A DNA stretch of 64,000 nt, taken from a bacterium. Lineage in GTDB: Bacteria > RBG-13-61-14 > DATKZS01. Below the pieces are notes generated by a model. That model saw only the letters and a list, made by a program, of their open reading frames with translations. It did not search any database and had not been told where the DNA came from. The position numbers and the translations under genes are program-made. The stretch's first letter is position 1, and the number at the start of each line of letters is the position of its first letter. This document shows positions 2,263 to 43,176 of this stretch, in pieces. The DNA lies in the NCBI GenBank assembly GCA_046484135.1, contig JAWOBU010000269.1, positions 401 through 64,400 on the forward strand. The letters are read 5' to 3'.

Positions 2263-2488
2263 GGTATTTTACCCTTTGGTCCGGACGCCGGTTTCAGGCT
2301 CCGGGGAGGACTGTTTTTTGAAAGAGAGATGAATTTAACAACGGCAGAAATATACCGGAGGCCGGAGTTGCTGTCAAATGCACCTTGAAGACAATTTGAC
2401 TTGGCAGTTGTTTCGGAGAGAAAATAATATAATCTAGAAGCCATGCTTAGTGTATGGATTTCCCTTTAAGTTAGAGGAAGGAAGGTAG

Positions 2489-3169
2489 ATGGAAGTATTA
2501 GCTGATGCCTTGAAGAAGAAGTCCCATAGTCTCTCCGAGTATGATTCCAAGCGGGTCTTGCAGGAGTACGGCATACCGGTTACCAGAGAGCGCCTGGTGC
2601 GGGGTCAGAAGGACGCGGTGGCGGCCGCGGAGGAGATAGGCTACCCGGTGGTGATAAAGGCGACCGGTCCCGAGCTCACCCACAAGACGGAGATGGACGC
2701 CATCCGCTTGAACCTCGCAGACGCCAAGTCTGTCCGGCAGGCCGTACGCGAGCTCAAGGAGGCAACCAAGGGCGAAAAGATTCAGGGGCTGGTGGTCCAG
2801 GAGATGGTAAAGGGCCGGCGCGAGCTGGTGTTGGGTCTCATCCGGGACCCGCAGTTCGGTCCCTGCGTGATGTTCGGCCTGGGAGGCATCTACACGGAGA
2901 TTCTCCGCGACGTGTCTTTCCGGGTGGCGCCCCTCTCCGAGCGGGACGCCCTCGAGATGATGGACGAGATCAGGGGCAAGAAAATCCTGGACGCGGTCCG
3001 GGGGATGGCCGCGGCCGATCGCCAAGCCCTGGCCGAGTCCCTGGTGGCCCTGGGCAGGATCGGCATGGACCAGGACGAGGTCAAAGAAATAGACGTAAAC
3101 CCGATGATCCTGACCGGGGAAGGCCGGCCGGTGGCAGTGGACGCCCTGGTGGTATTAAAAAGCCAGTAG
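2489..3169 (+). CDS. ATP-grasp domain protein, acetate--CoA ligase (ADP-forming) beta-subunit-like
   Basis: The 226-aa ORF has the signature ...YGIPV...GYPVVIKATGPELTHKTEMDAIRLNL...VQEMV..GRELVLG...VNPMI of ACD/succinyl-CoA-synthetase-beta-type ATP-grasp domains. A GGAAGG RBS precedes the ATG. Confidence 0.7.
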   Translation: MEVLADALKKKSHSLSEYDSKRVLQEYGIPVTRERLVRGQKDAVAAAEEIGYPVVIKATGPELTHKTEMDAIRLNLADAKSVRQAVRELKEATKGEKIQGLVVQEMVKGRRELVLGLIRDPQFGPCVMFGLGGIYTEILRDVSFRVAPLSERDALEMMDEIRGKKILDAVRGMAAADRQALAESLVALGRIGMDQDEVKEIDVNPMILTGEGRPVAVDALVVLKSQ

Positions 3170-3231
3170 CCCACACAGAGGTCTGTTAATAAGCGGCGGT
3201 AGCCCACTTCCGTTGCAGGGCTCTTTGGAGT

Positions 3232-4296
3232 TTGACAAGCCATTTTATATCCGGAGCGAACAAGACGCCATCTACGGACAGTAAAATATCAAGGGCATCG
3301 AAGAGCTTGATTAAAAAGGCCGGCGGCCGCCCGCTGAAGCTGCTGTATCAACAGGCCCTCCTCAGGTACTCCTCCGAGGTCCGGAACCTGTCGCCATACG
3401 CGCCGAACCCGCGGATCGTCCTGCTCGAACTCTCCAGCCTGTGCAACCTCCATTGCCCCAAGTGCGCGCTCAAGGCGACCAGGCGCGAAAAAGGGCTCAT
3501 GCCCGCGGAAAAGGCCATGGAGCTGATAGACCGGTGCAGCGAAATCAGTCCCGACATCATTAACCTGTCCATGCTGGGAGAGCCGCTCCTGCACCCGGAG
3601 GCAGAAAGGATCGTTTCTTATGCATCGGGCAAAGGGTTTCCGGCCGGGCTTACCACCAACGCCATTCTCCTTGCCCCGGAAAGGTCGAAAAAGCTCCTGC
3701 AAGCCGGGATCAAGTTAATCGTGGTTTCCATAGACGGATGGGACCGCGAGTCGAACGCAAAGCGCCAGCACGGCGCCGACCTGGACAAGATGCTTTTCAA
3801 CCTGAATAAACTCCGCGAGATGCGAGGAAAGAGCGCAAAACCCCGCATCGTGGCCAACACCATCTGGGACAGGGAATGCCTCGAGCATCTTTCCGAAATA
3901 AAAGCGCTGCTCGCTCCCTACGTGGACGACATCCGCCCCATTCCCCTCATAGACTTCGGGGTCCCCGGCCATGAAATAGACCCCGCTCTTGTGCCCGGAA
4001 CCAGATCGTGGAAAAGAGTGCCCTGCCGCTACCTGTGGAACATATTGAGCATCGGGTGGGACGGAGCGGTCACAGCCTGCTGCAGCGACTACGCCTACAT
4101 GCTGAAATACCACCACGTAGACTTAGCCCCCCTTTCCGAAATATGGAACAGCGAAAAGATAAGAAAATGGCGCGAGCTTCATATCGAGGGCAGGTTCAAC
4201 GAAATGCCCATGTGCGGCAGGTGTACAAAAGACTATCTCGATTCCTTTGCCTTCTACCGGCTGAAAGACCGCTTCCATGGAATCGAGGTAAGCTAA
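3232..4296 (+). CDS. Radical SAM protein with C-terminal SPASM/twitch domain
   Basis: It carries a CNLHCPKC (CxxxCxxC) cluster, a C-terminal CCSDY…CGRC Cys-rich SPASM-like region, and a GEPLLHP motif. The track start is a TTG; an alternative TTG near 3304 is possible. Confidence 0.7.
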   Translation: MTSHFISGANKTPSTDSKISRASKSLIKKAGGRPLKLLYQQALLRYSSEVRNLSPYAPNPRIVLLELSSLCNLHCPKCALKATRREKGLMPAEKAMELIDRCSEISPDIINLSMLGEPLLHPEAERIVSYASGKGFPAGLTTNAILLAPERSKKLLQAGIKLIVVSIDGWDRESNAKRQHGADLDKMLFNLNKLREMRGKSAKPRIVANTIWDRECLEHLSEIKALLAPYVDDIRPIPLIDFGVPGHEIDPALVPGTRSWKRVPCRYLWNILSIGWDGAVTACCSDYAYMLKYHHVDLAPLSEIWNSEKIRKWRELHIEGRFNEMPMCGRCTKDYLDSFAFYRLKDRFHGIEVS

Positions 4297-30717: not shown

Positions 30718-31318
30718 GTTTTCTATCCAGTCCACATCTCGACTTGCAACTTTCTGGAATAATTAGACATTATACGGCCGTTCGTGTATGGTTAAAAGTC
30801 TTTCCTTCTCTCCCAGATCAAAGAGCTGCCAAAGTTTCTCTTGGAGGTGAGGTGCGGGGTCAGTTCTTTACAATTAAGTTTATGTAGGTCTTGAGACGCC
30901 ATACTTTAGAACAGCAGCAGTTATCTTTGGGAGTGCGGTGGCTTGCCGCCGCTTTGTGTCAGGGAGCTTGCTCCCGGTTGCCTTTCTTCCAGCTCCAACG
31001 GAGCGCCGTATATTAGCCAGGGGTTTTAACCCCTGGAAAAATGGGTATGGTTATGGCGCGTCCTGAAGGGACGCTGGAGTCCGTGGGATCGCGGGCGTCC
31101 CTGTCTGCGTGCGGACACGCACAGGCAGGCCGCCCGCTCTTGTTCTGCGGCCGAGACGGCCGCGTTCCCGGCCATTCTCCGCCGTCCCTTTGGGACTTGA
31201 GATGCTGGTCTTGATCGTGTCTGGAAGTCGCTCGCACAGGGGAGATGGGAGGAAACGCAACGGCGCTATGACGCAAGGGAAGAAGGAATATATTTTCAGC
31301 TAACGGAACAAAGACATA

Positions 31319-31834: not shown

Positions 31835-34800
31835 ATGACTTCAAAGTACTCGGAGCCGGTCGCGGAGAGCGCGTCCTGTTTATTCATTTCCAATGCCTCT
31901 TATAAAGGGACTTTGACACCTTCACCGCCTCCACCTAAAATGTCCTCGCAAGGAGGCTCCATGAGCTTTTACGCTGATCTTCATATCCATTCCAAGTACT
32001 CGCGGGCCACGAGCCTGGAGTGCGACCTCGAGCACCTGGCGTTGTGGGCGGCCAGGAAAGGCATCGCGTTGGTGGGCACCGGCGACTTCACCCACCCGGC
32101 CTGGTTTGCCGAGATCAAGGACAAGCTGGTGGCCGCGGAGCCGGGTCTGTTCCGTCTTCGCGACGACATTAATCGCGAGGTCTTCAAAACGGCTGACACG
32201 GTGCCCTCCGTGCCGGTGCGGTTCATGCTCACGGTGGAGATATCCACCATCTACAAGCGCGGCGACTACACCCGCAAGGTCCATCACGTGATCGTGTGCC
32301 CGGACCTCGAGTCCGCGGGCCGCTTCCGGGAAAGCCTCGACCGGATCGGCAACATCAGCTCGGACGGCCGGCCCATCCTGGGCCTGGACTCGCGGGACCT
32401 CTTGGAGATCACCCTCGAGACGGGCGGCGACAACTACTTGATCCCTGCCCATATCTGGACGCCGTGGTTCTCCGTGCTCGGCTCCAAGTCGGGCTTCAAC
32501 TCCATCGAGGAGTGTTACGGCGACCTGTCTTCCCATATCTTCGCCCTGGAGACCGGGCTATCATCGGACCCGCCCATGAACTGGCGGCTCTCCGGCCTCG
32601 ACCGCTACACCCTGGTGTCCAACTCCGATGCCCACTCGCCGGCCAAGCTGGGCCGGGAGGCCTGCGTGTTCGAGTGCGACCCGGACTACTACTCGATTCG
32701 CAAGGCCATGGAGACGGGCCACGGCTACCAGGGCACCGTCGAGTTCTTCCCCGAAGAAGGCAAGTATCACATGGACGGGCACCGCAAATGCCGCGCCTGC
32801 CTGGAGCCGGGCGAGACCCGGTCGCGGGACGGGGTGTGCCCGGTGTGCGGCAAGCCGGTTACCGTGGGGGTCATGCACCGGGTGGAGGCGCTGGCTGACC
32901 GGGCCGACGGTGCCAGGCCGGAGAACCCAGACCCCTTCCGCAGCTTTATCCCCCTTGACGAGATCATCTCCGAGACCTTGCAGGTAGGTCCCAAGAGCAA
33001 GAAGGTCATGAGAGCCTACGAGTCCATAGTGGCGCGGCTGGGGCCGGAGCTTGATATCCTCGAACAGGTGCCGATAGAAGACATAAAAACCGGTGGCTCG
33101 ACCCTGATCGCGGAGGCTGTCTCAAGAATGCGAGAGGGCCGGGTCATAAAGCAGGCGGGCTACGACGGCGAGTATGGAGTGATAAGGCTTTTCCAGCCCG
33201 AAGAGCTCGAATGTCAAAGCAAGGGCGGGCTCCTGTTCGAGCTCCCGGAGGCGCAGAAAGAGCCCCGCAAAAAGCAGAAGGAGAAGAAAGCCGCAAAACC
33301 GGCAAGCAAAGGAGAAGCTGAAAAGCGAAAGACAGAAAAGGCGCAGCCCGAAACCGGGGTTGCTAGCGGAACAGCCTCGGAGCCCGGCACAGGCGTTCTT
33401 GCGGGACTGGACCCCGACCAGGCAGAGGCCGCCCGAATCATGGAAGGACCTCTGCTTATCCTGGCCGGACCCGGCACCGGCAAGACGCGTACGCTTACTC
33501 ATCGCATCGCTGCACTGGTCTCGGATAAAGGAGCGGACCCCGACTCCTGCCTGGCGCTCACCTTCTCGAGACGGGCGGCCTTCGAGATGAAGGAAAGGCT
33601 GGAGGTGCTTCTGCCTGAGACCTGTTCACAAGTGCCGGTCATGACCTTCCACGCCCTGGGTCTGTCCATCCTGCGCGAGCACGCGGACAAGCTGGACATT
33701 CCCCGCAGGTTCGCTGTCATGGGCGAACAGGAAAGGGTGGAGCTTTTGGCCGCGGCCGGCGGGTGGAGCGAGTCCAAGGCCCGGAAGCTGGTCTCGCGCA
33801 TCGCCCGGCAAAAGCGCACCGGCGAGGCGCCTGCGCCGGACAGCGAGTTCAGCTCTGCTTACGAGCTTTATGAAAAGGAGCGGAGCTCGCGCGGTCTGGT
33901 TGATTTCGAGGACCTGGTGGGACTCGCGGCGTGGCTTTTGGAGTCCGATCCCGGTGTTTGCGCCGACTACCGGGAGCGATTTCAGTGGGTGTCGGTGGAC
34001 GAGTACCAGGACGTGGACGAGCTCCAGTACCGGCTGGTGCGCGCGCTTTGTCCTTCGGACGGCAACATCTGCGCGATCGGCGACCCGGACCAGGCGGTGT
34101 ACGGTTTCCGGGGCTCGGACGTGCGTTTCTTTCTGCGCTTTCAGGAGGACTTCCCCGGCGCCCGCGTGGTCCGGCTCAGCCGGAACTACCGTTCGAGCCG
34201 GAACATCCTGGACGCGGGTCTGCAGGTGATCTCGGAGTCGGAGCTTTGCCTGGAGCGGTCGCTGGAGCCTCTGCTGGAGGACCCGTCTCGAGTGGCCATC
34301 CATGAAGGGGCCACCGAGCGCGCCGAGGCCGAGTTCGTGGTCCAGTCCCTGGAGCGGATGCTGGGCGGGCACAGCTTCTTTTCCATTGACAGCGGCCGGG
34401 CGGAGGAGGACGAAGGCAAGGATTATACCTTCTCCGACTTCGCTGTACTCTATCGCACTGATGCGCAGGCGGCTCCTTTGGTGGAGGCACTAGACCGGTC
34501 GGGCATCCCCTTCCAGAAGCGCTCGCATGAAAGGCTCATGGACAGGCCGGGCGTGCAAAAGCTCACCGAGCTTCTTCGGCAGGAGGAGCGCGGCAGACCG
34601 GTTTCCGAGCTGATCGGGGAGGCCGCGGAAAAAGCGAAAGAGCTAACAGAGAGCTTTTCTTCTGGAGAGCCGGAGGCGAAAGAAGAAGATTTTTCAGCGG
34701 AGCTGAACAAGGCGGTGGAGCTTTTGTCGCTCCTGGCGGACAAGTGGGACCGGGACCTGGCCGGGTTTTTGGCCGAGATATCGTTGGGCGCCGAGGTTGA

Positions 34801-35158
34801 TACGTGGGACCCGCGTGCGGAGCGGGTCTCGCTTTTGACGCTTCACGCGGCCAAGGGCCTCGAGTTCCGGGTGGTCTTTATCACGGGCTGCGAGGACGGG
34901 CTTCTGCCGCTCCGGTGGAAAAAGGAGGACGACTCGAACATCGAGGAGGAGCGTCGGCTCTTTTACGTGGGAATGACCCGGTCGAAGGAAAGGCTTTTTT
35001 TAAGCCGGGCCGTGAAAAGAAAGATCGGCTCCGCTTACCGCAAGCTCGGTCCTTCCCCGTTTTTGAAACAGATCGAAGAGCGGCTTCTGGAGAGGATCGA
35101 GTCAAAGCCGCTGCCGAAGAAGGAGAAGCCCGCCGCGGAGCAGTTGGACCTGTTTTGA
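31835..35158 (+). CDS. Fusion protein: N-terminal EndoQ-like PHP-domain nuclease with Zn ribbon, plus C-terminal UvrD/PcrA-like superfamily-1 DNA helicase (1107 aa)
   Basis: The N-terminus FYADLHIHSKYSRATS… and …LIPAHIWTPWFSVLGSKSGF…SNSDAHSP…CRAC…CPVCGK match the PHP/TIGR00375 (EndoQ-type) pattern. The C-terminal half carries Walker A LAGPGTGKTRTLTHRIA, VDEYQDVD, and VGMTRSKERLFLS helicase motifs. A Lys-rich linker joins the two halves. Confidence 0.75.
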   Translation: MTSKYSEPVAESASCLFISNASYKGTLTPSPPPPKMSSQGGSMSFYADLHIHSKYSRATSLECDLEHLALWAARKGIALVGTGDFTHPAWFAEIKDKLVAAEPGLFRLRDDINREVFKTADTVPSVPVRFMLTVEISTIYKRGDYTRKVHHVIVCPDLESAGRFRESLDRIGNISSDGRPILGLDSRDLLEITLETGGDNYLIPAHIWTPWFSVLGSKSGFNSIEECYGDLSSHIFALETGLSSDPPMNWRLSGLDRYTLVSNSDAHSPAKLGREACVFECDPDYYSIRKAMETGHGYQGTVEFFPEEGKYHMDGHRKCRACLEPGETRSRDGVCPVCGKPVTVGVMHRVEALADRADGARPENPDPFRSFIPLDEIISETLQVGPKSKKVMRAYESIVARLGPELDILEQVPIEDIKTGGSTLIAEAVSRMREGRVIKQAGYDGEYGVIRLFQPEELECQSKGGLLFELPEAQKEPRKKQKEKKAAKPASKGEAEKRKTEKAQPETGVASGTASEPGTGVLAGLDPDQAEAARIMEGPLLILAGPGTGKTRTLTHRIAALVSDKGADPDSCLALTFSRRAAFEMKERLEVLLPETCSQVPVMTFHALGLSILREHADKLDIPRRFAVMGEQERVELLAAAGGWSESKARKLVSRIARQKRTGEAPAPDSEFSSAYELYEKERSSRGLVDFEDLVGLAAWLLESDPGVCADYRERFQWVSVDEYQDVDELQYRLVRALCPSDGNICAIGDPDQAVYGFRGSDVRFFLRFQEDFPGARVVRLSRNYRSSRNILDAGLQVISESELCLERSLEPLLEDPSRVAIHEGATERAEAEFVVQSLERMLGGHSFFSIDSGRAEEDEGKDYTFSDFAVLYRTDAQAAPLVEALDRSGIPFQKRSHERLMDRPGVQKLTELLRQEERGRPVSELIGEAAEKAKELTESFSSGEPEAKEEDFSAELNKAVELLSLLADKWDRDLAGFLAEISLGAEVDTWDPRAERVSLLTLHAAKGLEFRVVFITGCEDGLLPLRWKKEDDSNIEEERRLFYVGMTRSKERLFLSRAVKRKIGSAYRKLGPSPFLKQIEERLLERIESKPLPKKEKPAAEQLDLF

Positions 35159-35240
35159 AACATTCCGCTATATAAAAAGCCGGGAGCGGAAGCGCACGGC
35201 CTCCGCTCCGGGGAAGGTATACAAAGTAGAGCTCGAAAGC

Positions 35241-36079: not shown

Positions 36080-36754
36080 TCAGTAGTCCTCCGGATATGA
36101 CTCGGCAAGGCCCATCTCATACTCGAGCTCGTTTACGGCCACCTCTATATCGTCAACCGCGGAGGCCTCCACAAACACGTAGTCCAGAACTTCATCCTGC
36201 GCATCCGCGGTTTCATTCTCCGACGCGGGGGTTTCCTGCTTTTCGGGCTGGGCTTCGGTGTAATGTTCCGCGGTGTCTCCGCCTAAAAGCAGGGCCTCTT
36301 CCCGGTACATCATCTGTTCAAGATCATCTATCTCCGTCTCCATTGCGACCAGGTAGGAAGGTACCTCGGATTTTTTCCGCGCTTGTCGGACATCAGAAGC
36401 GCGGTCCGTGAAGAAACTCTGATTTATAATGAGTGCAAGGGCCAGCACCAGCACGGCCGCCGCGGGGACCAGCACCCGCGGATTCGAGAAGACCCCGCCA
36501 AAAATGGATTTAATGGCCCTTCTTTGTTTACGTTTTGCCTTTTTCCGGACCGCGGCCACGGAAGTTTCCGAGGGGATGTCCCACGCCTCGCCGGTGGCGG
36601 CCCTTACTTCGCCTATCATGGAAAGGTAGGCCCCGCAGGCCGGGCAGTCCCGCACGTGCGCGGCGATGGCCGCGTCCGGGGACTCTCCATAAGCGAAAAG
36701 CAGAAGGTCGCCGGTGGAAACCTTGTCACAGCCGTGCTCGTAAAACGGTTTCAT
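36080..36754 (-). CDS. Zinc-binding anti-sigma factor (ZAS-type, single TM, acidic periplasmic domain)
   Basis: HVRDCPAC (HxxxCxxC) motif, one TM helix (…AAAVLVLALALII…), and a 4-nt overlap with the sigma factor gene. Confidence 0.65.
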   Translation of the reverse strand: MKPFYEHGCDKVSTGDLLLFAYGESPDAAIAAHVRDCPACGAYLSMIGEVRAATGEAWDIPSETSVAAVRKKAKRKQRRAIKSIFGGVFSNPRVLVPAAAVLVLALALIINQSFFTDRASDVRQARKKSEVPSYLVAMETEIDDLEQMMYREEALLLGGDTAEHYTEAQPEKQETPASENETADAQDEVLDYVFVEASAVDDIEVAVNELEYEMGLAESYPEDY

Positions 36755-37302
36755 TTTTTCTCCTCCGCAAGCGGGCTCAGCTCTTGCCGGAGCTTCTTCA
36801 TGGCCAGGTGCATCCTGGAGAGGACGGTGTTCAAGTTGGTCTCCTTCATGCTTGCTATCTCTTTAAAAGAAAGTCCTCCATACTCGCGCAAAAGGAAGAC
36901 CTCTTTCTGCTCGGGGGAAAGACTTTCCAAGGCCCCCTCCAGGGCTTTTTTCATCTCGTTTTTCATGGTCCGGGTCTCGGGGTCCTCTCCTCCCGCGTAC
37001 TCAGGAGGATCGGCCTCCATGCTCACCGGGTCGCGCTTCCTCCGCCGGAGCCGGTCTTTTGCCAGGTTCGTAGCTATGGAAAAGACCCATGTCGAAAAGC
37101 TCCGGTCCGAATCAAAGCTGTCCCGGTGTTTGACCACCCTGATGAAGGTGTCCTGAAAGATGTCCTCGGCTTCCTGTCGGTCTCTAACCATTCTCATGAC
37201 CACCGTGAAAAGCGGCTTCCGGTAACGCTCCAAAAGCTCCTCGAACGATCCCCTGTCACCTGCGCGATATCTGTCAAACAGCTCCTCGTCGGAATTCTTC
37301 AT
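36751..37302 (-). CDS. ECF-type RNA polymerase sigma-70 family sigma factor
   Basis: Region 2 (…DIFQDTFIRVVKH…) and region 4 (…KEIASMKETNLNTVLSRMHLAMKKLR) signatures in a 183-aa ORF. Confidence 0.85.
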   Translation of the reverse strand: MKNSDEELFDRYRAGDRGSFEELLERYRKPLFTVVMRMVRDRQEAEDIFQDTFIRVVKHRDSFDSDRSFSTWVFSIATNLAKDRLRRRKRDPVSMEADPPEYAGGEDPETRTMKNEMKKALEGALESLSPEQKEVFLLREYGGLSFKEIASMKETNLNTVLSRMHLAMKKLRQELSPLAEEKK

Positions 37303-37507: not shown

Positions 37508-37789
37508 TTAAAACCTGTTTTGCTGAGGTTTCCTTTTCTGCTGCTCCCTGGCATAGTTCACCTTGAGGTTTCTTCCCTCAAAGGCATAGCCGTCGAGCGC
37601 GTCTATGGACTGCTGGGCTTCGTCTTCCGTTCCCATTTCCACAAACCCGAAACCCCTGGACCTCCCCGTCTCGCGATCGGTTATGATCCTGCATTCCACT
37701 ACCTGTCTCCCGTCGCCCTCGAAGAGCTCGCGCAGAGCCTCCTCCGAGGTACGGAAGGGCAGGTTGCCCACGTACAAACGATTACTCAT
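37508..37789 (-). CDS. RRM-domain RNA-binding protein
   Basis: RNP-2 (LYVGNL) and RNP-1 (RGFGFVEM) motifs. The likely start is MSNRLYVGNL…; the track ORF extends to 37909. Confidence 0.8.
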   Translation of the reverse strand: MSNRLYVGNLPFRTSEEALRELFEGDGRQVVECRIITDRETGRSRGFGFVEMGTEDEAQQSIDALDGYAFEGRNLKVNYAREQQKRKPQQNRF

Positions 37790-38265
37790 CTCTCTTTTCT
37801 CCTTTTCGAAACTTGACCGCTTACGGTCTTCCATCCTCGCTTCCGGGCCGCGATCCAGAAGCCTCCTTACCAAGCCCTGCTGACGAAGCCGTGCATCCTT
37901 TGCGATCAAGCGAACGAAAGGAGCCGATCGAGCACGAGCCGTCCGGGTAGATTACTTCGCGGCGAACTGCCCGGCTATTTAATTGTAGATTACTCCAGTA
38001 TTTTCAATCTGTCAATATGGAAATTGAAAAAAAACGAAATAAACTCTCCGCGCCGGCGAGGAAAAAGCCGGGCCTGTAGAACACTCTTTTTATGGACCGT
38101 TACCGAAAAACCTTCCCCCTCTTAAAACCATACCGGCCCTGATGCGTTTTACCCTGACAGGTTTTGGAAACAGCCGGTCGCTATATTTGGCCGGACCCGG
38201 TTGCCGGAGATAAAATTCTTCCGGTACCAAGAAAGATGAGGATTCAAACAAAGGAGAGAGTAAAG

Positions 38266-41200
38266 ATGAAATCTTACGCTGCCATCGCAACCCTGTTTCT
38301 GGCCATGTTCCTGACCCTGTTCAGCACGGGAGAAACCAGGGAGAACCCGGTACTGGACGTCTACGTTTTCTCGCCGGCGGAGCTCGATCCCGGCTCCCGC
38401 GCCTCCTTCCGGGTGGTGGTCAAGGAAGCGAAGAGCCTGACCGACTCCCGGCCGGTGGAAGGCGCCCGGGTGTGGGTAGGCTTAAAGGGCGAAGAAGACC
38501 ATTCCCTTTTGGTGGCCCGGACCAATGAGTCGGGCAGTATAACCCGGTCGGCGCGAATACCCGATGTGCCCGCGGGAGATGATTACGAGCTCGAGGTCCG
38601 GGTATCATCCCGGCTCGGAACAAAGAAGCTCAGCAAAGAAGTAAAGATAGCGCCGCGCTACCGGGTGCTCCTAACTACTGACAAGCCGCTCTACCAGCCG
38701 GGGCAGCTCATCCACATCAGGTCGGTGTCGCTGGGCATGGCCGAGCTTTCGCCCGTGGCAAATGAAAAGGTGGTCCTCGATGTCGAGGACCCGCAAGGCA
38801 ACAAGGTGTTCAAGAAGATCGGCGAGACCGACGAGTACGGCATCTTTGCCGCGGACTTTCAACTGGCGTCGGAAATCCGACTGGGCAGATACCTGGTCCG
38901 GGCCAGCGTGGGTGACCGGAGCGCGGAAAAGACAATCAAAGTTGACCGCTACGTGCTTCCCAAGTACAAGGTGGTCCTGGACACCGACCGGAGCTACTAC
39001 AAGCCGGGCGAGGAGGTGCACGGCACGGTGAGCGCCAACTACTTCTTCGGAAAGCCGGTTGCGGGCGGCAAGGTAGAGGTAACCGCAGAGGCCTTTGACG
39101 TGGAGTTCCACAAGGTGGCTGAGGTTACCGGCCGCACCGACGACGACGGCAACTTCGAGTTCGAGCTCGAGCTTCCCGACTACTTTGCCGGACAGCCCTT
39201 GGAGCAGGGGGACGCTTTTGTAAAGATCACCGCCAAGGTAACGGACCAGGCCGAGCACGAGGAAGAGGCCACGGTACAGCGCAAGGTGTCGGCCACCGAC
39301 CTCAACCTTGCGCTGGTGCCGGAGGCCGGCCGGATCATTCCCGGGGTCGAGAACACCATCTACGCGGTGGCGTCCACCCCGGACGACAAGCCGGCCCGCG
39401 CCCGCGTAACCATCAAGGCGGGAGACAAGACCATGACCGCCCGCACCGGCCGGGCGGGTATCGCGTCCGTGTCTTTCGTGCCCGAGGCCGACGACTTCCT
39501 GCGTCGCGGCAACAAACTTCATCTTTCCATCCGGGCGCACGCAGAGGACAGGCGCGGCAACGAGGTCGAGATAAAAAAGGACTTATCCGCAAAGGACACT
39601 AATGACAATGTCATGTTGCGCACCGACCGGGCGCTCTACACTGCGGGCGAGGACATGGAGCTCGAGGTCCTGTCCACCCGTGGCACCGGCACGGTTTACA
39701 TAGACCTCATCAAGAACCGGCAGACGGTGCTCACGCGGTCGGTGGAGATCAAGGACGGCAGGGGCCACACCCGGGTCTCCATTGGACCGGACGTTTTCGG
39801 GACCGTCGAGGTCCACGCTTACTCGATCCTGGGCGACGGCGAGATCATGCGGGACAGCCGGGTGGTCTACATCGAGCCGCAAGACGACCTCGATATTGAC
39901 GTGTCCCTGGACAAGGACACCTACCGGCCGGGGGAAGAGGCCCGGCTTGTATTCAAGGTTACGGATGATAAAGGCCGGGGAAAGGCCGCGGCCCTGGGCC
40001 TGTCCATAGTTGACGAAGCGGTGTTCGCCATCCAGGAGATGCAGCCCGGGCTTCTCAAGGTGTACTTCACCCTGGAGAAGGAGCTGGCCAAGCCGCGCTA
40101 CGAGGTCCACTTCTCGCCCGGCGGCTACACCATGGAAAAGGCGATACAGGAGCAAGAAGCCAAGGCGTCCCGCGACCGGGCCATGAAGGTCATGCTGGCG
40201 GGCGTGAAAAACCCCACCGAGCCGGAGTGGGCCAACAACCCGGCAAAGGAAAGGCTGGAAAAGGAGAAGAAACAGCTTCAAAGCTACGCCCGCAAGTTCG
40301 CTGGCTGGGCGAGCTCGCACCGGTTCCTGGAGAAAAACCGGCAGGGACAGTGGGTGTACCGGAGCGATGTAACCGAGCGGATGATAAAGGACGGCGCCAT
40401 CAGCGAGAAAAAGGCCCGCGACTCTTTCGGCGGGCTTTATAAGCCGGAGATGCTGGAGAGGGTGGATTCGATTTTCAAGCTCCCGAACTTTGCCCGCAAC
40501 ATGGCTTCTTACCGGCTGGCGGTGATCTACTCGGCGCTGAACATAATGTTCGAGGAGGAGGAAGAATCGTGGCTGGGCGGCATGTTTGACGGAGGCGAGG
40601 AGCCCGAGATAACGCCTGAGCTCCTGGATAAGATGGTAAAGAAAGAGTACCTGACAGAAGGCCACATCAAGGACCCGTGGGGGAAGCGCTACATAGTGCG
40701 CTATGACGAGGACAGCAAGCGAAACCCCTACAGCAACCAATACAAGCATTACGTGATAAAGTCGGCGGGACTGGACGGAGAGCCGGACACCAGGGACGAC
40801 ATCTCCGACCCGTGGGGAGCGGGACCCCGGTTTTATCAATATGTATCGAGAATCCGCAGAGAACAGGACAAGGGGCTTTTGGGCAGGGTCCTGGACCGGG
40901 TCCGGCCGTGGTTCTCGGTGGAGGAAAAAGCCCTGCGCCGGGCCCGGCCCGTAGCAGAAGCTCCCGAGGCCCAGGGGGGCGCTATGCTGGGCGACGCTGC
41001 GGAAATGGAAAGCACGGGCAAAGACACGAGCGGCAGCGGCTCGGGCAACCAGGGCGAACAAATCCGGGTCCGGGACTACTTCCCGGAGACCCTGCTGTGG
41101 GAGCCTTCGCTCATCACCGACCGGAACGGCCGCGCCGAGCTTACTTTGCCGCTTGCCGACTCGATCACCACCTGGCGGCTCACTGCGCTGGGTCATTCCG

Positions 41201-43176
41201 CGGACGGTATGTTGGGTTCGGTAACCGACGGCATCAAGGTTTTCCAGGACTTTTTCGTTGACATAGACTTCCCGGTACAGCTCACTCAGGGCGACGAGGT
41301 CGAGGTCCCGGTAGCGGTTTACAACTACCTTCCGGGCTCGCAAAAGATCAAGCTCGAGGTCCGCGAGCACCAGGGATTCGAGCTTCTTTCCGGGGCGGTA
41401 AAAAGACTCAGGCTGAAGACGAACCAGGTGGACGTGGTGTACTTCCGGGTGAAGGCGGAGGAGCTCGGCAAGCAGAGCCTGACGGTCTATGCCATCGGCT
41501 CGAAGATGAGCGACGCTGTGAAGCGGTCGGTGGAGGTTATCCCGGACGGCCTGCGCATGGAGGACGTAAAGAACGGGCAGATCACGGGAGACCTTGCCGA
41601 GACCATCAAGATACCGGATTACGCCATCGAGGACGCCAGCCGGATCATGGTGAAAGTTTACCCGGGCGTGTTCGCGCAGGTGCTGGAGGGGCTGGACAGC
41701 ATCTTCCGCATGCCCAACGGCTGCTTCGAGCAGACCACCTCGACCACCTACCCCAACGTCATGGTCCTGGCCTACATGAAAAAGACCGGCACCATCAGGC
41801 CGGAAATCCAGATGAAGGCGGAGGAGTACATCAACCTGGGCTACCAGCGACTCCTTTCCTTCGAAGTCCCCGGCGGAGGGTTCGAATGGTTCGGAAAAGA
41901 GCCAGCCCACAAGGTACTCACCGCGTACGGGCTCATGGAATTCCATGACATGAGCAAGGTCTATCCGGTAGACCCCGCGGTGATCGAAAGAACTCAGAGG
42001 TGGCTCGCTGACAAGCAGAAGGACGACGGCTCCTGGGAGCCTGCTAAGCACTGGATGGAGACCCTGTCCGGCAACGCCTTCTCGAGGTCGGTCGAGCTCA
42101 ACACCGCCTATATAACATGGTCGCTGGCCGAGACCGGCTATGAAGGACAAGAGGTGCAGAAAGGGATCAATTACTTGAAGGAGAACATGAAAGAGATTGA
42201 TGACGCTTATACCCTGGCGCTGGCCCTGAACGCGCTGGTGGCCCACGACCGGAATGATCCCGCTGCCCGCGACATCATGGACAAGCTGAACCGGCTCAAG
42301 AAAAAGGACGACAAGCGCGGGACCATCCACTGGGAGCCCGCGGGCGAGACCGCGGTGAACGGCAAGGGCAAGACCGCCAAGATCGAGACCACGGCGCTGA
42401 TCCTCTATGCCATGATCAAGGCAAGGGCTTACCCCGCCACCGTGAACCAGGGGCTTGGCTGGCTTTCGCAGCAGAAAGACGCGTTCGGGACCTTCCAGTC
42501 CACCCAGGCCACTATTCTTACATTCAAGGCCATGCTGGCCGCGGAAGAAGGGACCGGCTCGGACGTAAAAGGGGACATCACCATCAAGGCGGGAGACCGC
42601 GAGCACACCGTGTCCATCACCCCCGAGACCTCGGACGTGATGAGGATGATAGACTTCAAAGGCCAGACCGTAAAAGGCAAAAACAGAATCGAGATCGAAG
42701 CTCCCGACAACATGGGCCTCATGTACCAGGTGGTGGGCATACACTACGCGCCCTGGAAAAAGGTTGCTGAGATAAAGGGAGAGCCGCTCCTGTCCCTGGA
42801 TGTGGACTACGACCGCACGAAGCTCGAGACCAATGACGTGCTCACCGCGAATGTAAAAGCCCAGTACAACGGCGAGAAGTCAACCGAGATGGTGATCCTG
42901 GACCTCGGCATTCCGCCGGGATTCGAGCTCCTGCCCGAGAACCTGCAAAAACTGAGAGATAAGAACGTGATCGAGAAGTACAACGCCACCGGCAGGCAGA
43001 TCACGGTTTACGTGCGCAGGATGAAAAAAGGCGAGCCCCTCGAGTTCTCCTATGAGCTCAAGGCCAAGTTCCCGGTCAAGGCCAAGGCACCCAAAAGCGC
43101 GGCCTACGAGTACTACAACCCGGAGAACCGGGTGGAGACCACCCCGGTGGAGATCGAGGTAAAGAAGGCAAATTAA
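38266..43176 (+). CDS. Alpha-2-macroglobulin family protein (bacterial A2M, thioester-containing; CFEQ variant), secreted
   Basis: Signal peptide MKSYAAIATLFLAMFLTLFS (ATG at 38266 behind an aaggagag RBS). Repeated MG-like beta-sandwich segments. The thioester motif is …RMPNGCFEQTTSTTYPNVMV. The 1637-aa length fits the family. Confidence 0.85.
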   Translation: MKSYAAIATLFLAMFLTLFSTGETRENPVLDVYVFSPAELDPGSRASFRVVVKEAKSLTDSRPVEGARVWVGLKGEEDHSLLVARTNESGSITRSARIPDVPAGDDYELEVRVSSRLGTKKLSKEVKIAPRYRVLLTTDKPLYQPGQLIHIRSVSLGMAELSPVANEKVVLDVEDPQGNKVFKKIGETDEYGIFAADFQLASEIRLGRYLVRASVGDRSAEKTIKVDRYVLPKYKVVLDTDRSYYKPGEEVHGTVSANYFFGKPVAGGKVEVTAEAFDVEFHKVAEVTGRTDDDGNFEFELELPDYFAGQPLEQGDAFVKITAKVTDQAEHEEEATVQRKVSATDLNLALVPEAGRIIPGVENTIYAVASTPDDKPARARVTIKAGDKTMTARTGRAGIASVSFVPEADDFLRRGNKLHLSIRAHAEDRRGNEVEIKKDLSAKDTNDNVMLRTDRALYTAGEDMELEVLSTRGTGTVYIDLIKNRQTVLTRSVEIKDGRGHTRVSIGPDVFGTVEVHAYSILGDGEIMRDSRVVYIEPQDDLDIDVSLDKDTYRPGEEARLVFKVTDDKGRGKAAALGLSIVDEAVFAIQEMQPGLLKVYFTLEKELAKPRYEVHFSPGGYTMEKAIQEQEAKASRDRAMKVMLAGVKNPTEPEWANNPAKERLEKEKKQLQSYARKFAGWASSHRFLEKNRQGQWVYRSDVTERMIKDGAISEKKARDSFGGLYKPEMLERVDSIFKLPNFARNMASYRLAVIYSALNIMFEEEEESWLGGMFDGGEEPEITPELLDKMVKKEYLTEGHIKDPWGKRYIVRYDEDSKRNPYSNQYKHYVIKSAGLDGEPDTRDDISDPWGAGPRFYQYVSRIRREQDKGLLGRVLDRVRPWFSVEEKALRRARPVAEAPEAQGGAMLGDAAEMESTGKDTSGSGSGNQGEQIRVRDYFPETLLWEPSLITDRNGRAELTLPLADSITTWRLTALGHSADGMLGSVTDGIKVFQDFFVDIDFPVQLTQGDEVEVPVAVYNYLPGSQKIKLEVREHQGFELLSGAVKRLRLKTNQVDVVYFRVKAEELGKQSLTVYAIGSKMSDAVKRSVEVIPDGLRMEDVKNGQITGDLAETIKIPDYAIEDASRIMVKVYPGVFAQVLEGLDSIFRMPNGCFEQTTSTTYPNVMVLAYMKKTGTIRPEIQMKAEEYINLGYQRLLSFEVPGGGFEWFGKEPAHKVLTAYGLMEFHDMSKVYPVDPAVIERTQRWLADKQKDDGSWEPAKHWMETLSGNAFSRSVELNTAYITWSLAETGYEGQEVQKGINYLKENMKEIDDAYTLALALNALVAHDRNDPAARDIMDKLNRLKKKDDKRGTIHWEPAGETAVNGKGKTAKIETTALILYAMIKARAYPATVNQGLGWLSQQKDAFGTFQSTQATILTFKAMLAAEEGTGSDVKGDITIKAGDREHTVSITPETSDVMRMIDFKGQTVKGKNRIEIEAPDNMGLMYQVVGIHYAPWKKVAEIKGEPLLSLDVDYDRTKLETNDVLTANVKAQYNGEKSTEMVILDLGIPPGFELLPENLQKLRDKNVIEKYNATGRQITVYVRRMKKGEPLEFSYELKAKFPVKAKAPKSAAYEYYNPENRVETTPVEIEVKKAN

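Follow-up and report, generated by a model that had tools for sequence, protein, structure and literature searches.

A bacterial protein family that joins an EndoQ-type nuclease to a UvrD-like helicase and carries a predicted clamp-binding tail

The stretch of DNA analysed here, which we call the window, comprises 64,000 nucleotides of a bacterial contig (JAWOBU010000269.1, positions 401 to 64,400; GenBank assembly GCA_046484135.1) and raises the question whether a nuclease resembling endonuclease Q (EndoQ) and a UvrD-type helicase can be made as one enzyme and, if so, what such an enzyme would do. A sequence-only reading of the window had assigned a single polypeptide of this kind to positions 31835-35158 and had named, among the findings that would refute it, two genes joined by a sequencing frameshift. 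The forward strand indeed holds one uninterrupted open reading frame (ORF) of 1107 codons plus stop at exactly these positions, and all features of the gene described below lie on this strand. Residue numbers refer to the ORF counted from 31835; as the protein probably begins at M43, numbers counted from there are lower by 42.

The fused reading frame and its two modules

To judge whether the fusion is real, we turned to its homologues. The best 120 matches in a large protein collection were 1019-1259 amino acids long, covered 92-96% of the query (79% in a single case) at 54-77% identity and shared one precomputed domain set. A scan of one genome per species returned at least 600 matching stretches; should each gene have been hit by the two search patterns separately, this would still mean at least about 300 genes. 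The best 80 loci all aligned to query residues ~43-1107, and the EndoQ and helicase motifs lay in one uninterrupted frame in every one of them, including complete chromosomes of cultured strains such as Sorangium sp. So ce1078 and Actinoplanes sp. CA-015351. Because both halves share one frame in 80/80 independent genomes, a frameshift artefact is excluded. An assembly join of neighbouring endoQ and uvrD genes, against which the 120 best matches speak as well, thus has a negligible probability, and we regard a genuine EndoQ-UvrD fusion protein as virtually certain.

The assignment of the N-terminal part to the PHP/TIGR00375 group of EndoQ-like proteins held up in sequence, catalytic residues and predicted fold. 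Residues 47-457 aligned end to end with Pyrococcus furiosus EndoQ (PDB 5zb8, E 3.1e-45; 7k30, E 1.5e-44), and the full TIGR00375 model was covered (positions 2-374 of 374, E 6.7e-43), with identities of ~31-33% to the P. furiosus and 29% to the Brevibacillus enzyme. The module consists of a PHP catalytic domain (residues 43-305, positions 31961-32749), a zinc-binding domain (residues 306-372, 32750-32950) and, as its C-terminal part, a helical domain (residues 373-453, 32951-33193). In P. furiosus EndoQ (PfuEndoQ), two metals are bound by His8, His10, Glu76, His84, His139 and Asp193 (plus His195), and activity is nearly lost in the E76Q, H84A, H139A and D193N variants (PMC5961232). The corresponding residues of the fused protein are H50, H52, E135, H150, H206, D265 and H267, so that the positions required in the mutagenesis experiments are E135, H150, H206 and D265. 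None of the His, Asp and Glu ligands, whose loss would have spoken against the assignment, is missing, and all seven are invariant in alignments of 20 and of 72 fused proteins. The pocket and steric-gate residues H139, G169 and S171 of PfuEndoQ (PMC8307549) are represented by H206, G241 and S243, again without exception, and the wider set of pocket and wedge residues, Thr142, Trp144, Glu167, Gly169, Leu170, Ser171 and Asn191, corresponds to the invariant T209, W211, E239, G241, L242, S243 and N263. The sole difference in the pocket is T240 in place of Leu168. An AlphaFold2 model built from 72 sequences (mean pLDDT 80.7, pTM 0.65) superimposed on 5zb8 with TM 0.83-0.85 and an rmsd of 3.2-4.1 A over ~425 columns that include all three EndoQ domains. 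Hence, as judged from alignment and model, both its fold and its active site make the N-terminal half an EndoQ, one that belongs to a divergent branch. It shares the PHP/zinc/helical fold, the metal ligands and the pocket with the archaeal enzymes PfuEndoQ (PF1551) and TkoEndoQ (TK0887) and with the standalone bacterial proteins of Bacillus pumilus and Brevibacillus; in contrast to all of these, it is followed covalently by a UvrD-type helicase of ~590 amino acids.

The loop that follows the wedge Trp (WTPWF..LGSKSGF; TPWF..LGSKSGF, residues 209-220, positions 32459-32494) is invariant in the fused proteins, three amino acids longer than in PfuEndoQ and modelled with low confidence. It probably becomes ordered only on DNA.

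The predicted zinc site differed from what had been expected. The sequence-only reading had placed a zinc ribbon at the C-terminal end of the nuclease part; the corresponding domain is present, but we rejected a Cys4 ribbon made up of C319, C322, C335 and C338. C322 is not conserved, and a CxxC...CPxCG pattern occurs in only 19 of 120 homologues. The zinc ligands of PfuEndoQ are Cys249, Cys252, Cys268 and Cys271, and the position of Cys249 is taken by the invariant His316 in the fused family, whereas the standalone Brevibacillus EndoQ has Cys there, as in Pfu. With C319, C335 and C338 (CPVCG) also invariant, the predicted ligands are H316, C319, C335 and C338 (HxxC...CPxCG), and a His-Cys3 (HCCC) rather than a Cys4 site is plausible for the fused family.

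The claim that a full UvrD/PcrA-type core of helicase superfamily SF1A follows was likewise borne out. Residues 521-1091 (positions 33395-35107) matched PcrA (1pjr, E 7.5e-85) as well as UvrD from Deinococcus radiodurans, Mycobacterium tuberculosis and Escherichia coli, and the Pfam families UvrD-helicase (E 1e-64, 219.3 bits with a cutoff of 23) and UvrD_C (E 2.4e-41, 142.8 bits with a cutoff of 25.6) were found in them. Motifs Q, I, Ia, II, III, IV, V and VI were all located and are conserved; among them are the Walker A motif (motif I) AGPGTGKT (residues 544-551, positions 33464-33487), motif II DEYQD (residues 722-726, 33998-34012), GDPDQAVYGFRG (residues 749-760), NYRS (784-787), TLHAAKGLEF (1002-1011) and VGMTRS (1045-1050). 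The model superimposed on the UvrD-DNA binary complex 2is2_A with TM 0.78 and an rmsd of 3.0 A. While the 1A/1B/2A/2B layout and all motifs are shared with the 3'-5' SF1A helicases UvrD, PcrA and Rep (2is2, 1pjr, 4c2t, 1uaa), identity to these proteins is 27-31% and the fused protein deviates from them in three places. Its 2B-like helical subdomain (residues ~902-987, positions 34538-34795) is ~70 residues shorter, residues 400-479 of PcrA having no counterpart, and is poorly conserved, at 32%, within the family. Domain 2A contains a family-specific insertion of 16 amino acids (GGHSFFSxDSGR, residues 844-859, 34364-34411) that is absent in PcrA and UvrD, has several invariant residues and is modelled with pLDDT <50; it might touch DNA or form an interface to the EndoQ part. 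Finally, the PcrA alignment stops at residue 652 of 724 and just 16 disordered residues remain, so that a UvrD/PcrA C-terminal domain is lacking. In UvrD and PcrA, this domain is the partner-binding region. Its absence suggests that the motor serves the attached nuclease and is not coupled to RNA polymerase, UvrB or MutL or to nucleotide excision repair, mismatch repair or transcription-coupled pathways. On sequence grounds, the helicase half is thus an SF1A UvrD-like motor and an orthologue of none of PcrA, UvrD and Rep.

A UvrD-like motor and a nuclease in one polypeptide are also found in AddAB, AdnAB and RecBCD, and the helicase half counts AddA, RecB and AdnB among its neighbours in sequence and fold. 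Together with the general helicase-plus-nuclease architecture and the existence of polymerase PHP domains with exonuclease activity (PMC3820547), this raises the alternative that the protein processes breaks or gaps in the manner of these machines, with the PHP domain acting as a non-specific 3'-5' exonuclease or phosphoesterase as in PolX or DnaE. We consider this quite unlikely. Far from being an isolated PHP domain, the N-terminal half comprises the complete three-domain EndoQ fold with its invariant pocket and steric gate, a Pfam search found no RecB-type PD-(D/E)XK domain in the protein, and the AddA and RecB matches were limited to the motor and fell far under the respective cutoffs. Whereas AddAB, AdnAB and RecBCD carry a docked C-terminal nuclease of the RecB family, require a partner subunit and work on the ends of DNA, the fused protein has a PHP endonuclease of the lesion-specific type, as predicted from its sequence, at its N-terminus and on a flexible tether, and no conserved gene for a partner subunit adjoins it at the 80 loci.

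Spread and naming of the family

According to the literature, only a limited number of species have conserved EndoQ, and within Bacteria it occurs in 'limited groups' (PMC6202378, PMC8438529). Our survey of the fused family contradicts such a limited bacterial distribution. Carriers of the fusion were found in Binatia, Planctomycetota, Myxococcota (Sorangium sp. So ce1078), Gemmatimonadota, Chloroflexota (Caldilinea), Melainabacteria and Rhodothermaceae, in a spirochaete and in Desulfonema limicola, and there are many in Actinomycetota, with Micromonospora, Salinispora pacifica, Actinoplanes, Saccharopolyspora hirsuta, Dactylosporangium and one Streptomyces. The median GC content of the carriers is 70%, with ten loci below 50%, in a sample that is skewed to relatives of the GC-rich query. 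When the EndoQ module was compared with 1.84 billion representatives of clusters at 50% identity, 3878 proteins matched at E<=1e-3, and with the threshold set to E<=1e-30 there were 1122; among the best 150 cluster representatives, 123 had at least 950 amino acids, and the shorter ones were mostly fragments in which Walker A or DExQD could still be recognized. Conservation within the family amounts to 68% in the EndoQ region, 56% in the helicase and 19% in the linker. The fusion is old, selected and widespread, and the family is large.

Nor is the fusion new to the databases, where it is already present under the uninformative name 'UvrD-helicase domain-containing protein'; homologues are also entered as 'ATP-dependent DNA helicase UvrD/PcrA' or 'TIGR00375 family'. 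The first of these names hides the nuclease half, and characterisation of a family member would correct it. PF27218.1 is listed in the precomputed Pfam domains of every fused homologue; presumably this entry models the EndoQ-like N-terminal part, in which case the Pfam curators would have defined that region only recently. The sequence-only reading had been aware of no characterised fused protein of this kind, and this agrees with our searches: no paper on an EndoQ-UvrD fusion was found in full-text searches of the openly accessible literature to mid-2026, and no PDB chain spans the EndoQ and helicase halves. Several features had escaped that reading and emerged from the alignments, namely the QLxLF terminus and the [S/L]LF motif in the linker, both described below, the putative His-Cys3 zinc site and the helicase that has a short 2B subdomain and lacks the C-terminal domain.

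Putative clamp motifs, linker and a proposed repair mechanism

The polypeptide ends with ...EQLDLF-COOH. The five last residues, QLDLF (residues 1103-1107, positions 35141-35155), conform to QLxLF, the bacterial consensus for binding to the beta sliding clamp, which is usually located at the C-terminus (PMC4549789). The tail before them is variable and is disordered in the model. In the alignment of 20 sequences, Q1103 and L1106 do not vary, Gln is present in 72/72 sequences, and Q[LM]x[LM][FLW] occurs within 15 residues of the end in 110 of 120 homologues, in 66 of them as the final residues; most exceptions read QxTLF. Archaeal EndoQ binds PCNA via a C-terminal PIP box with a KD of 55 nM, the box is required for stimulation, and that study also pointed out beta-clamp motifs with which standalone EndoQ homologues of bacteria end (PMC4858679). 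A sliding-clamp motif on a flexible C-terminal extension is therefore a further likeness between EndoQ and the fused protein, with the difference that the motif is the bacterial QLxLF and has been shifted to the helicase end. We conclude from the sequence that the terminal QLDLF is a probable sliding-clamp tether.

The two modules are connected by a disordered, hypervariable linker (residues 454-520, positions 33194-33394) with pLDDT values of ~30. The sequence-only reading had called it Lys-rich, which is true of this protein, where it is Lys/Glu-rich (stretch EAQKEPRKKQKEKKAAKPASKGEAEKRKTEKAQPE); across the family the composition is Ala/Pro/Glu/Ser-rich and the length ranges from 59 to 177 amino acids. 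One element stands out from the hypervariable surroundings, E457-L458-x7-[S/L]466-L467-F468 (positions 33203-33238), the residues of which are kept in 67-72 of 72 sequences, L467 and F468 in 71/72. It lies ~13 residues beyond the EndoQ fold, at the point at which the standalone proteins stop, and thus in the same position as the C-terminal PIP box of archaeal EndoQ (PMC4858679). The internal [S/L]LF may be the remnant of an ancestral clamp-binding motif, retained without its Gln, and is a candidate for a second clamp site; internal and terminal motifs together could, we infer, occupy both clefts of the beta dimer.

How would such a protein work? Characterised EndoQ enzymes from archaea and Bacillus incise DNA immediately 5' of the lesion and leave 3'-OH and 5'-P ends (PMC4357722). 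How the lesion is removed after this nick is left open in the EndoQ literature, although the legend to Fig. 10 of the same paper sketches a pathway with a branch for the incised segment to be 'removed by helicase activity' (PMC4357722). The sequence-only reading had proposed a dedicated module for lesion recognition and unwinding, and a nick-and-unwind lesion repair module is what we, too, infer. The proposal fits the sketch of the EndoQ discoverers and is strengthened by the conserved C-terminal beta-clamp consensus, a counterpart to the dependence of archaeal EndoQ on PCNA (PMC4858679). The EndoQ module would turn a uracil, a hypoxanthine or an abasic site out of the helix and, by analogy with the characterised enzymes, would cut the phosphodiester bond immediately 5' of it to yield 3'-OH and 5'-P. 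The tethered helicase would load at this nick and travel 3'->5' on the intact strand, thereby displacing the strand with the lesion, so that a 5' flap or a gap arises. Throughout, the terminal QLDLF, possibly together with the internal [S/L]LF, would keep the enzyme on the beta clamp; this tether would target it to newly replicated DNA, resynthesis would start when the 3'-OH is passed to a polymerase on the clamp, and a flap nuclease and ligase would complete the repair. Taken as a whole, a clamp-tethered single-chain repair enzyme that couples lesion incision to strand unwinding appears to us the probable function, albeit by no great measure. The proposed pathway would resemble nucleotide excision repair by UvrABC and UvrD and incision repair by UVDE or Nfo in that incision by the lesion, strand removal by a helicase and clamp-dependent resynthesis follow one another. 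It would differ by the use of one polypeptide instead of four or more, by a single 5' incision and by deaminated or abasic instead of bulky lesions, and there is no sequence relation of the fused protein to UvrA, UvrB, UvrC, UVDE or Nfo.

Several observations weigh against this mechanism. With 147.5 bits, the nuclease half scored below the curated NCBIfam cutoff of 326.6 for TIGR00375, and its predicted first zinc ligand is His in place of Cys. The helicase half remained far below the equivalog cutoffs for PcrA (395.7 vs 911), UvrD (308.8 vs 1144) and Rep (319 vs 951). Because of these scores the fused protein is considered an orthologue of no characterised enzyme, and with scores under the cutoffs its substrate range could have shifted. 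Clamp binding is predicted from a motif of just five residues, and in Micromonosporaceae the tail is a degenerate QLRLI. The structural model does not reliably place the modules relative to each other (pTM 0.65, linker pLDDT ~30), it is pure conjecture which strand the motor would load on and which way it would run with respect to the lesion, and no biochemical or genetic data on any fused member were found in the accessible literature.

The long flexible linker would also allow the reverse order of events, in which the motor comes first: it would translocate along or unwind DNA, for example at forks or in gaps behind the clamp, and thread single-stranded DNA past the EndoQ site, where deaminated or abasic residues would be cut, so that the helicase would act in surveillance and not in removal after incision. 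UvrD-like motors do feed single-stranded DNA to a fused nuclease in machines of the AddAB/RecBCD type, the structural neighbours of the helicase half, and EndoQ has been reported to be active on single- and double-stranded DNA (PMC8307549). However, in AddA and RecB the nuclease is docked at the exit for the single strand, while in the fused proteins it is N-terminal and 59-177 disordered residues away from the motor. Moreover, conservation of the duplex-bending cleft of EndoQ and of its wedge residue W144 (W211 in the fused protein) speaks for substrates that are duplex. We therefore regard scanning by the helicase ahead of incision as unlikely.

The fusion is a natural experiment: a close relative of archaeal EndoQ, widespread in Bacteria, is hard-wired to a UvrD-type motor and a clamp motif and points to helicase-driven strand removal on a sliding clamp as the downstream step. 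The presence of the family in cultured genera (Micromonospora, Salinispora, Actinoplanes, Saccharopolyspora, Sorangium) makes the model directly testable. A more far-reaching version, which we offer as no more than a tentative suggestion, holds that the main bacterial form of EndoQ is a self-contained, clamp-riding 'nick-and-peel' enzyme with two clamp motifs, one for each cleft of the beta dimer, that finds deaminated or abasic bases behind the replication fork, incises, strips off the damaged strand with its own motor and so provides a glycosylase-independent excision pathway in hundreds of species. If this were true, it would reveal the step after the EndoQ nick, EndoQ-initiated repair would be more than a capability of archaea shared by a handful of bacteria, and its carriers would include antibiotic-producing actinomycetes and myxobacteria.

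Mobility, start codon and neighbouring genes

A review relays the suggestion that EndoQ of Bacillus has a role in antiviral defence (PMC8307549), and the patchy distribution of the fused protein across phyla could be read in the same sense. The enzyme might act against phages or foreign DNA containing uracil or modified bases, or counter interbacterial DNA-deaminase toxins. PADLOC matched the helicase half with models for Gabija GajB and a DRT helicase; these are generic matches to the UvrD core, however, and the nuclease half matched nothing. Unlike in Gabija, no gajA gene adjoins the gene in the window, which lies among genes for fatty-acid oxidation, an ECF sigma factor, an RRM protein and an alpha-2-macroglobulin, and neither another defence partner nor a conserved neighbourhood was seen. 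All-versus-all clustering of 1017 ORFs from 81 loci revealed no conserved neighbour gene across phyla, clusters common to 11-20 loci reflecting synteny within Micromonosporaceae. The EndoQ module had 0 tblastn matches among 50,697 phage records and was essentially absent from plasmids, with one match among 72,556, a standalone 'endonuclease Q family protein' of 393 amino acids on a 733-kb Brevibacillus replicon. Furthermore, the conserved clamp-binding tail and identities of 55-68% across phyla look like a housekeeping function linked to replication. We thus give a role in defence very little credence: the PADLOC matches do not make the gene part of a defence system, and its occurrence does not associate it with mobile elements. 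It is a chromosomal gene of the housekeeping type and does not belong to a defence island or a mobile element.

The single plasmid match deserves a remark of its own. In Brevibacillus laterosporus (NZ_CP011075.1), the standalone endoQ gene begins 3 nucleotides past a gene for a NUDIX hydrolase on the same strand (positions 2426-4173 of the extracted locus L081), which suggests that the two form an operon. Despite the plasmid label of the replicon, the other neighbours are of the chromosomal type (spoIIM, fur, xerD), and there is no adjacent helicase gene.

The start of the gene in the window is a point at which the sequence-only reading, which had let it begin with the ORF, needs correction. 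The sequence MxFYADLHIHS at the position of M43 forms the N-terminus in 19/19 aligned fused homologues, the motif ADLHxHS begins at residue 5 in 105 of 120 homologues, and an NCBI protein of 1065 amino acids is 100% identical to the product started at M43. A ribosome-binding site, GGAGG (positions 31952-31956, as read from the sequence), is located 5-9 nucleotides upstream of the M43 ATG at 31961, and a sigma-70-type promoter-like site, TTGACA-17-TAAAAT, which matches the consensus at 11/12 positions and is identified by this match only, lies at 31913-31941, that is, within the putative extension of 42 amino acids. Because of the homologous N-termini, the NCBI protein, the GGAGG and the promoter-like site inside the extension, M43 is most likely the true start, ~126 nucleotides 3' of the ORF start. 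We dropped the start at 31835 in its favour; codons 1-42 are probably untranslated, and the most likely coding sequence spans 31961-35158 and encodes 1065 amino acids beginning with MSFYADLHIHS. Downstream of the stop codon, a G+C-rich, terminator-like hairpin of 11 bp (35183-35209) is situated between the convergent genes. Neither the antisense and overlapping ORFs within the gene nor the small ORFs in the gap upstream contain a Pfam family, and those within the gene are shadow ORFs of the sort that is common in GC-rich DNA.

The gene stands alone in the window. Upstream, on the opposite strand, genes for acyl-CoA dehydrogenases, a thiolase and an SDR constitute a fatty-acid oxidation cluster, after which a gene for a 366-amino-acid protein without Pfam match and a gene-poor stretch of 1.2 kb follow. 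The longest forms of the two acyl-CoA dehydrogenase ORFs (24653-26296 and 25960-27120, together 24653-27120, minus strand) overlap by ~340 nucleotides, and the start of the downstream one, 24653-26296, is probably over-extended. The gene-poor stretch contains an Acido-Lenti-1 small RNA motif (Rfam RF01687; 30991-31036, minus strand) that scored above the gathering threshold with 41.2 bits, as well as a second, weaker and inverted copy 115 nucleotides from the first (31151-31197, plus strand; 25.3 bits, E 0.003). The motif points weakly to a source resembling Acidobacteriota or Lentisphaerota.

On the downstream side, the gene for a convergently encoded protein of 262 amino acids without Pfam match comes first. 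It is followed by a minus-strand gene without Pfam match (36080-36754) that overlaps the gene for an ECF sigma factor (36751-37302, minus strand) and looks like that of its anti-sigma partner, and a small bacterial RNA-binding protein of the RRM_1 type (37508-37909, minus strand) is encoded next to this pair. The last gene of the series (38164-43176, plus strand) encodes an alpha-2-macroglobulin-like protein of 1670 amino acids with MG2, MG3, bait-region, A2M, thioester (TED) and receptor-binding domains.

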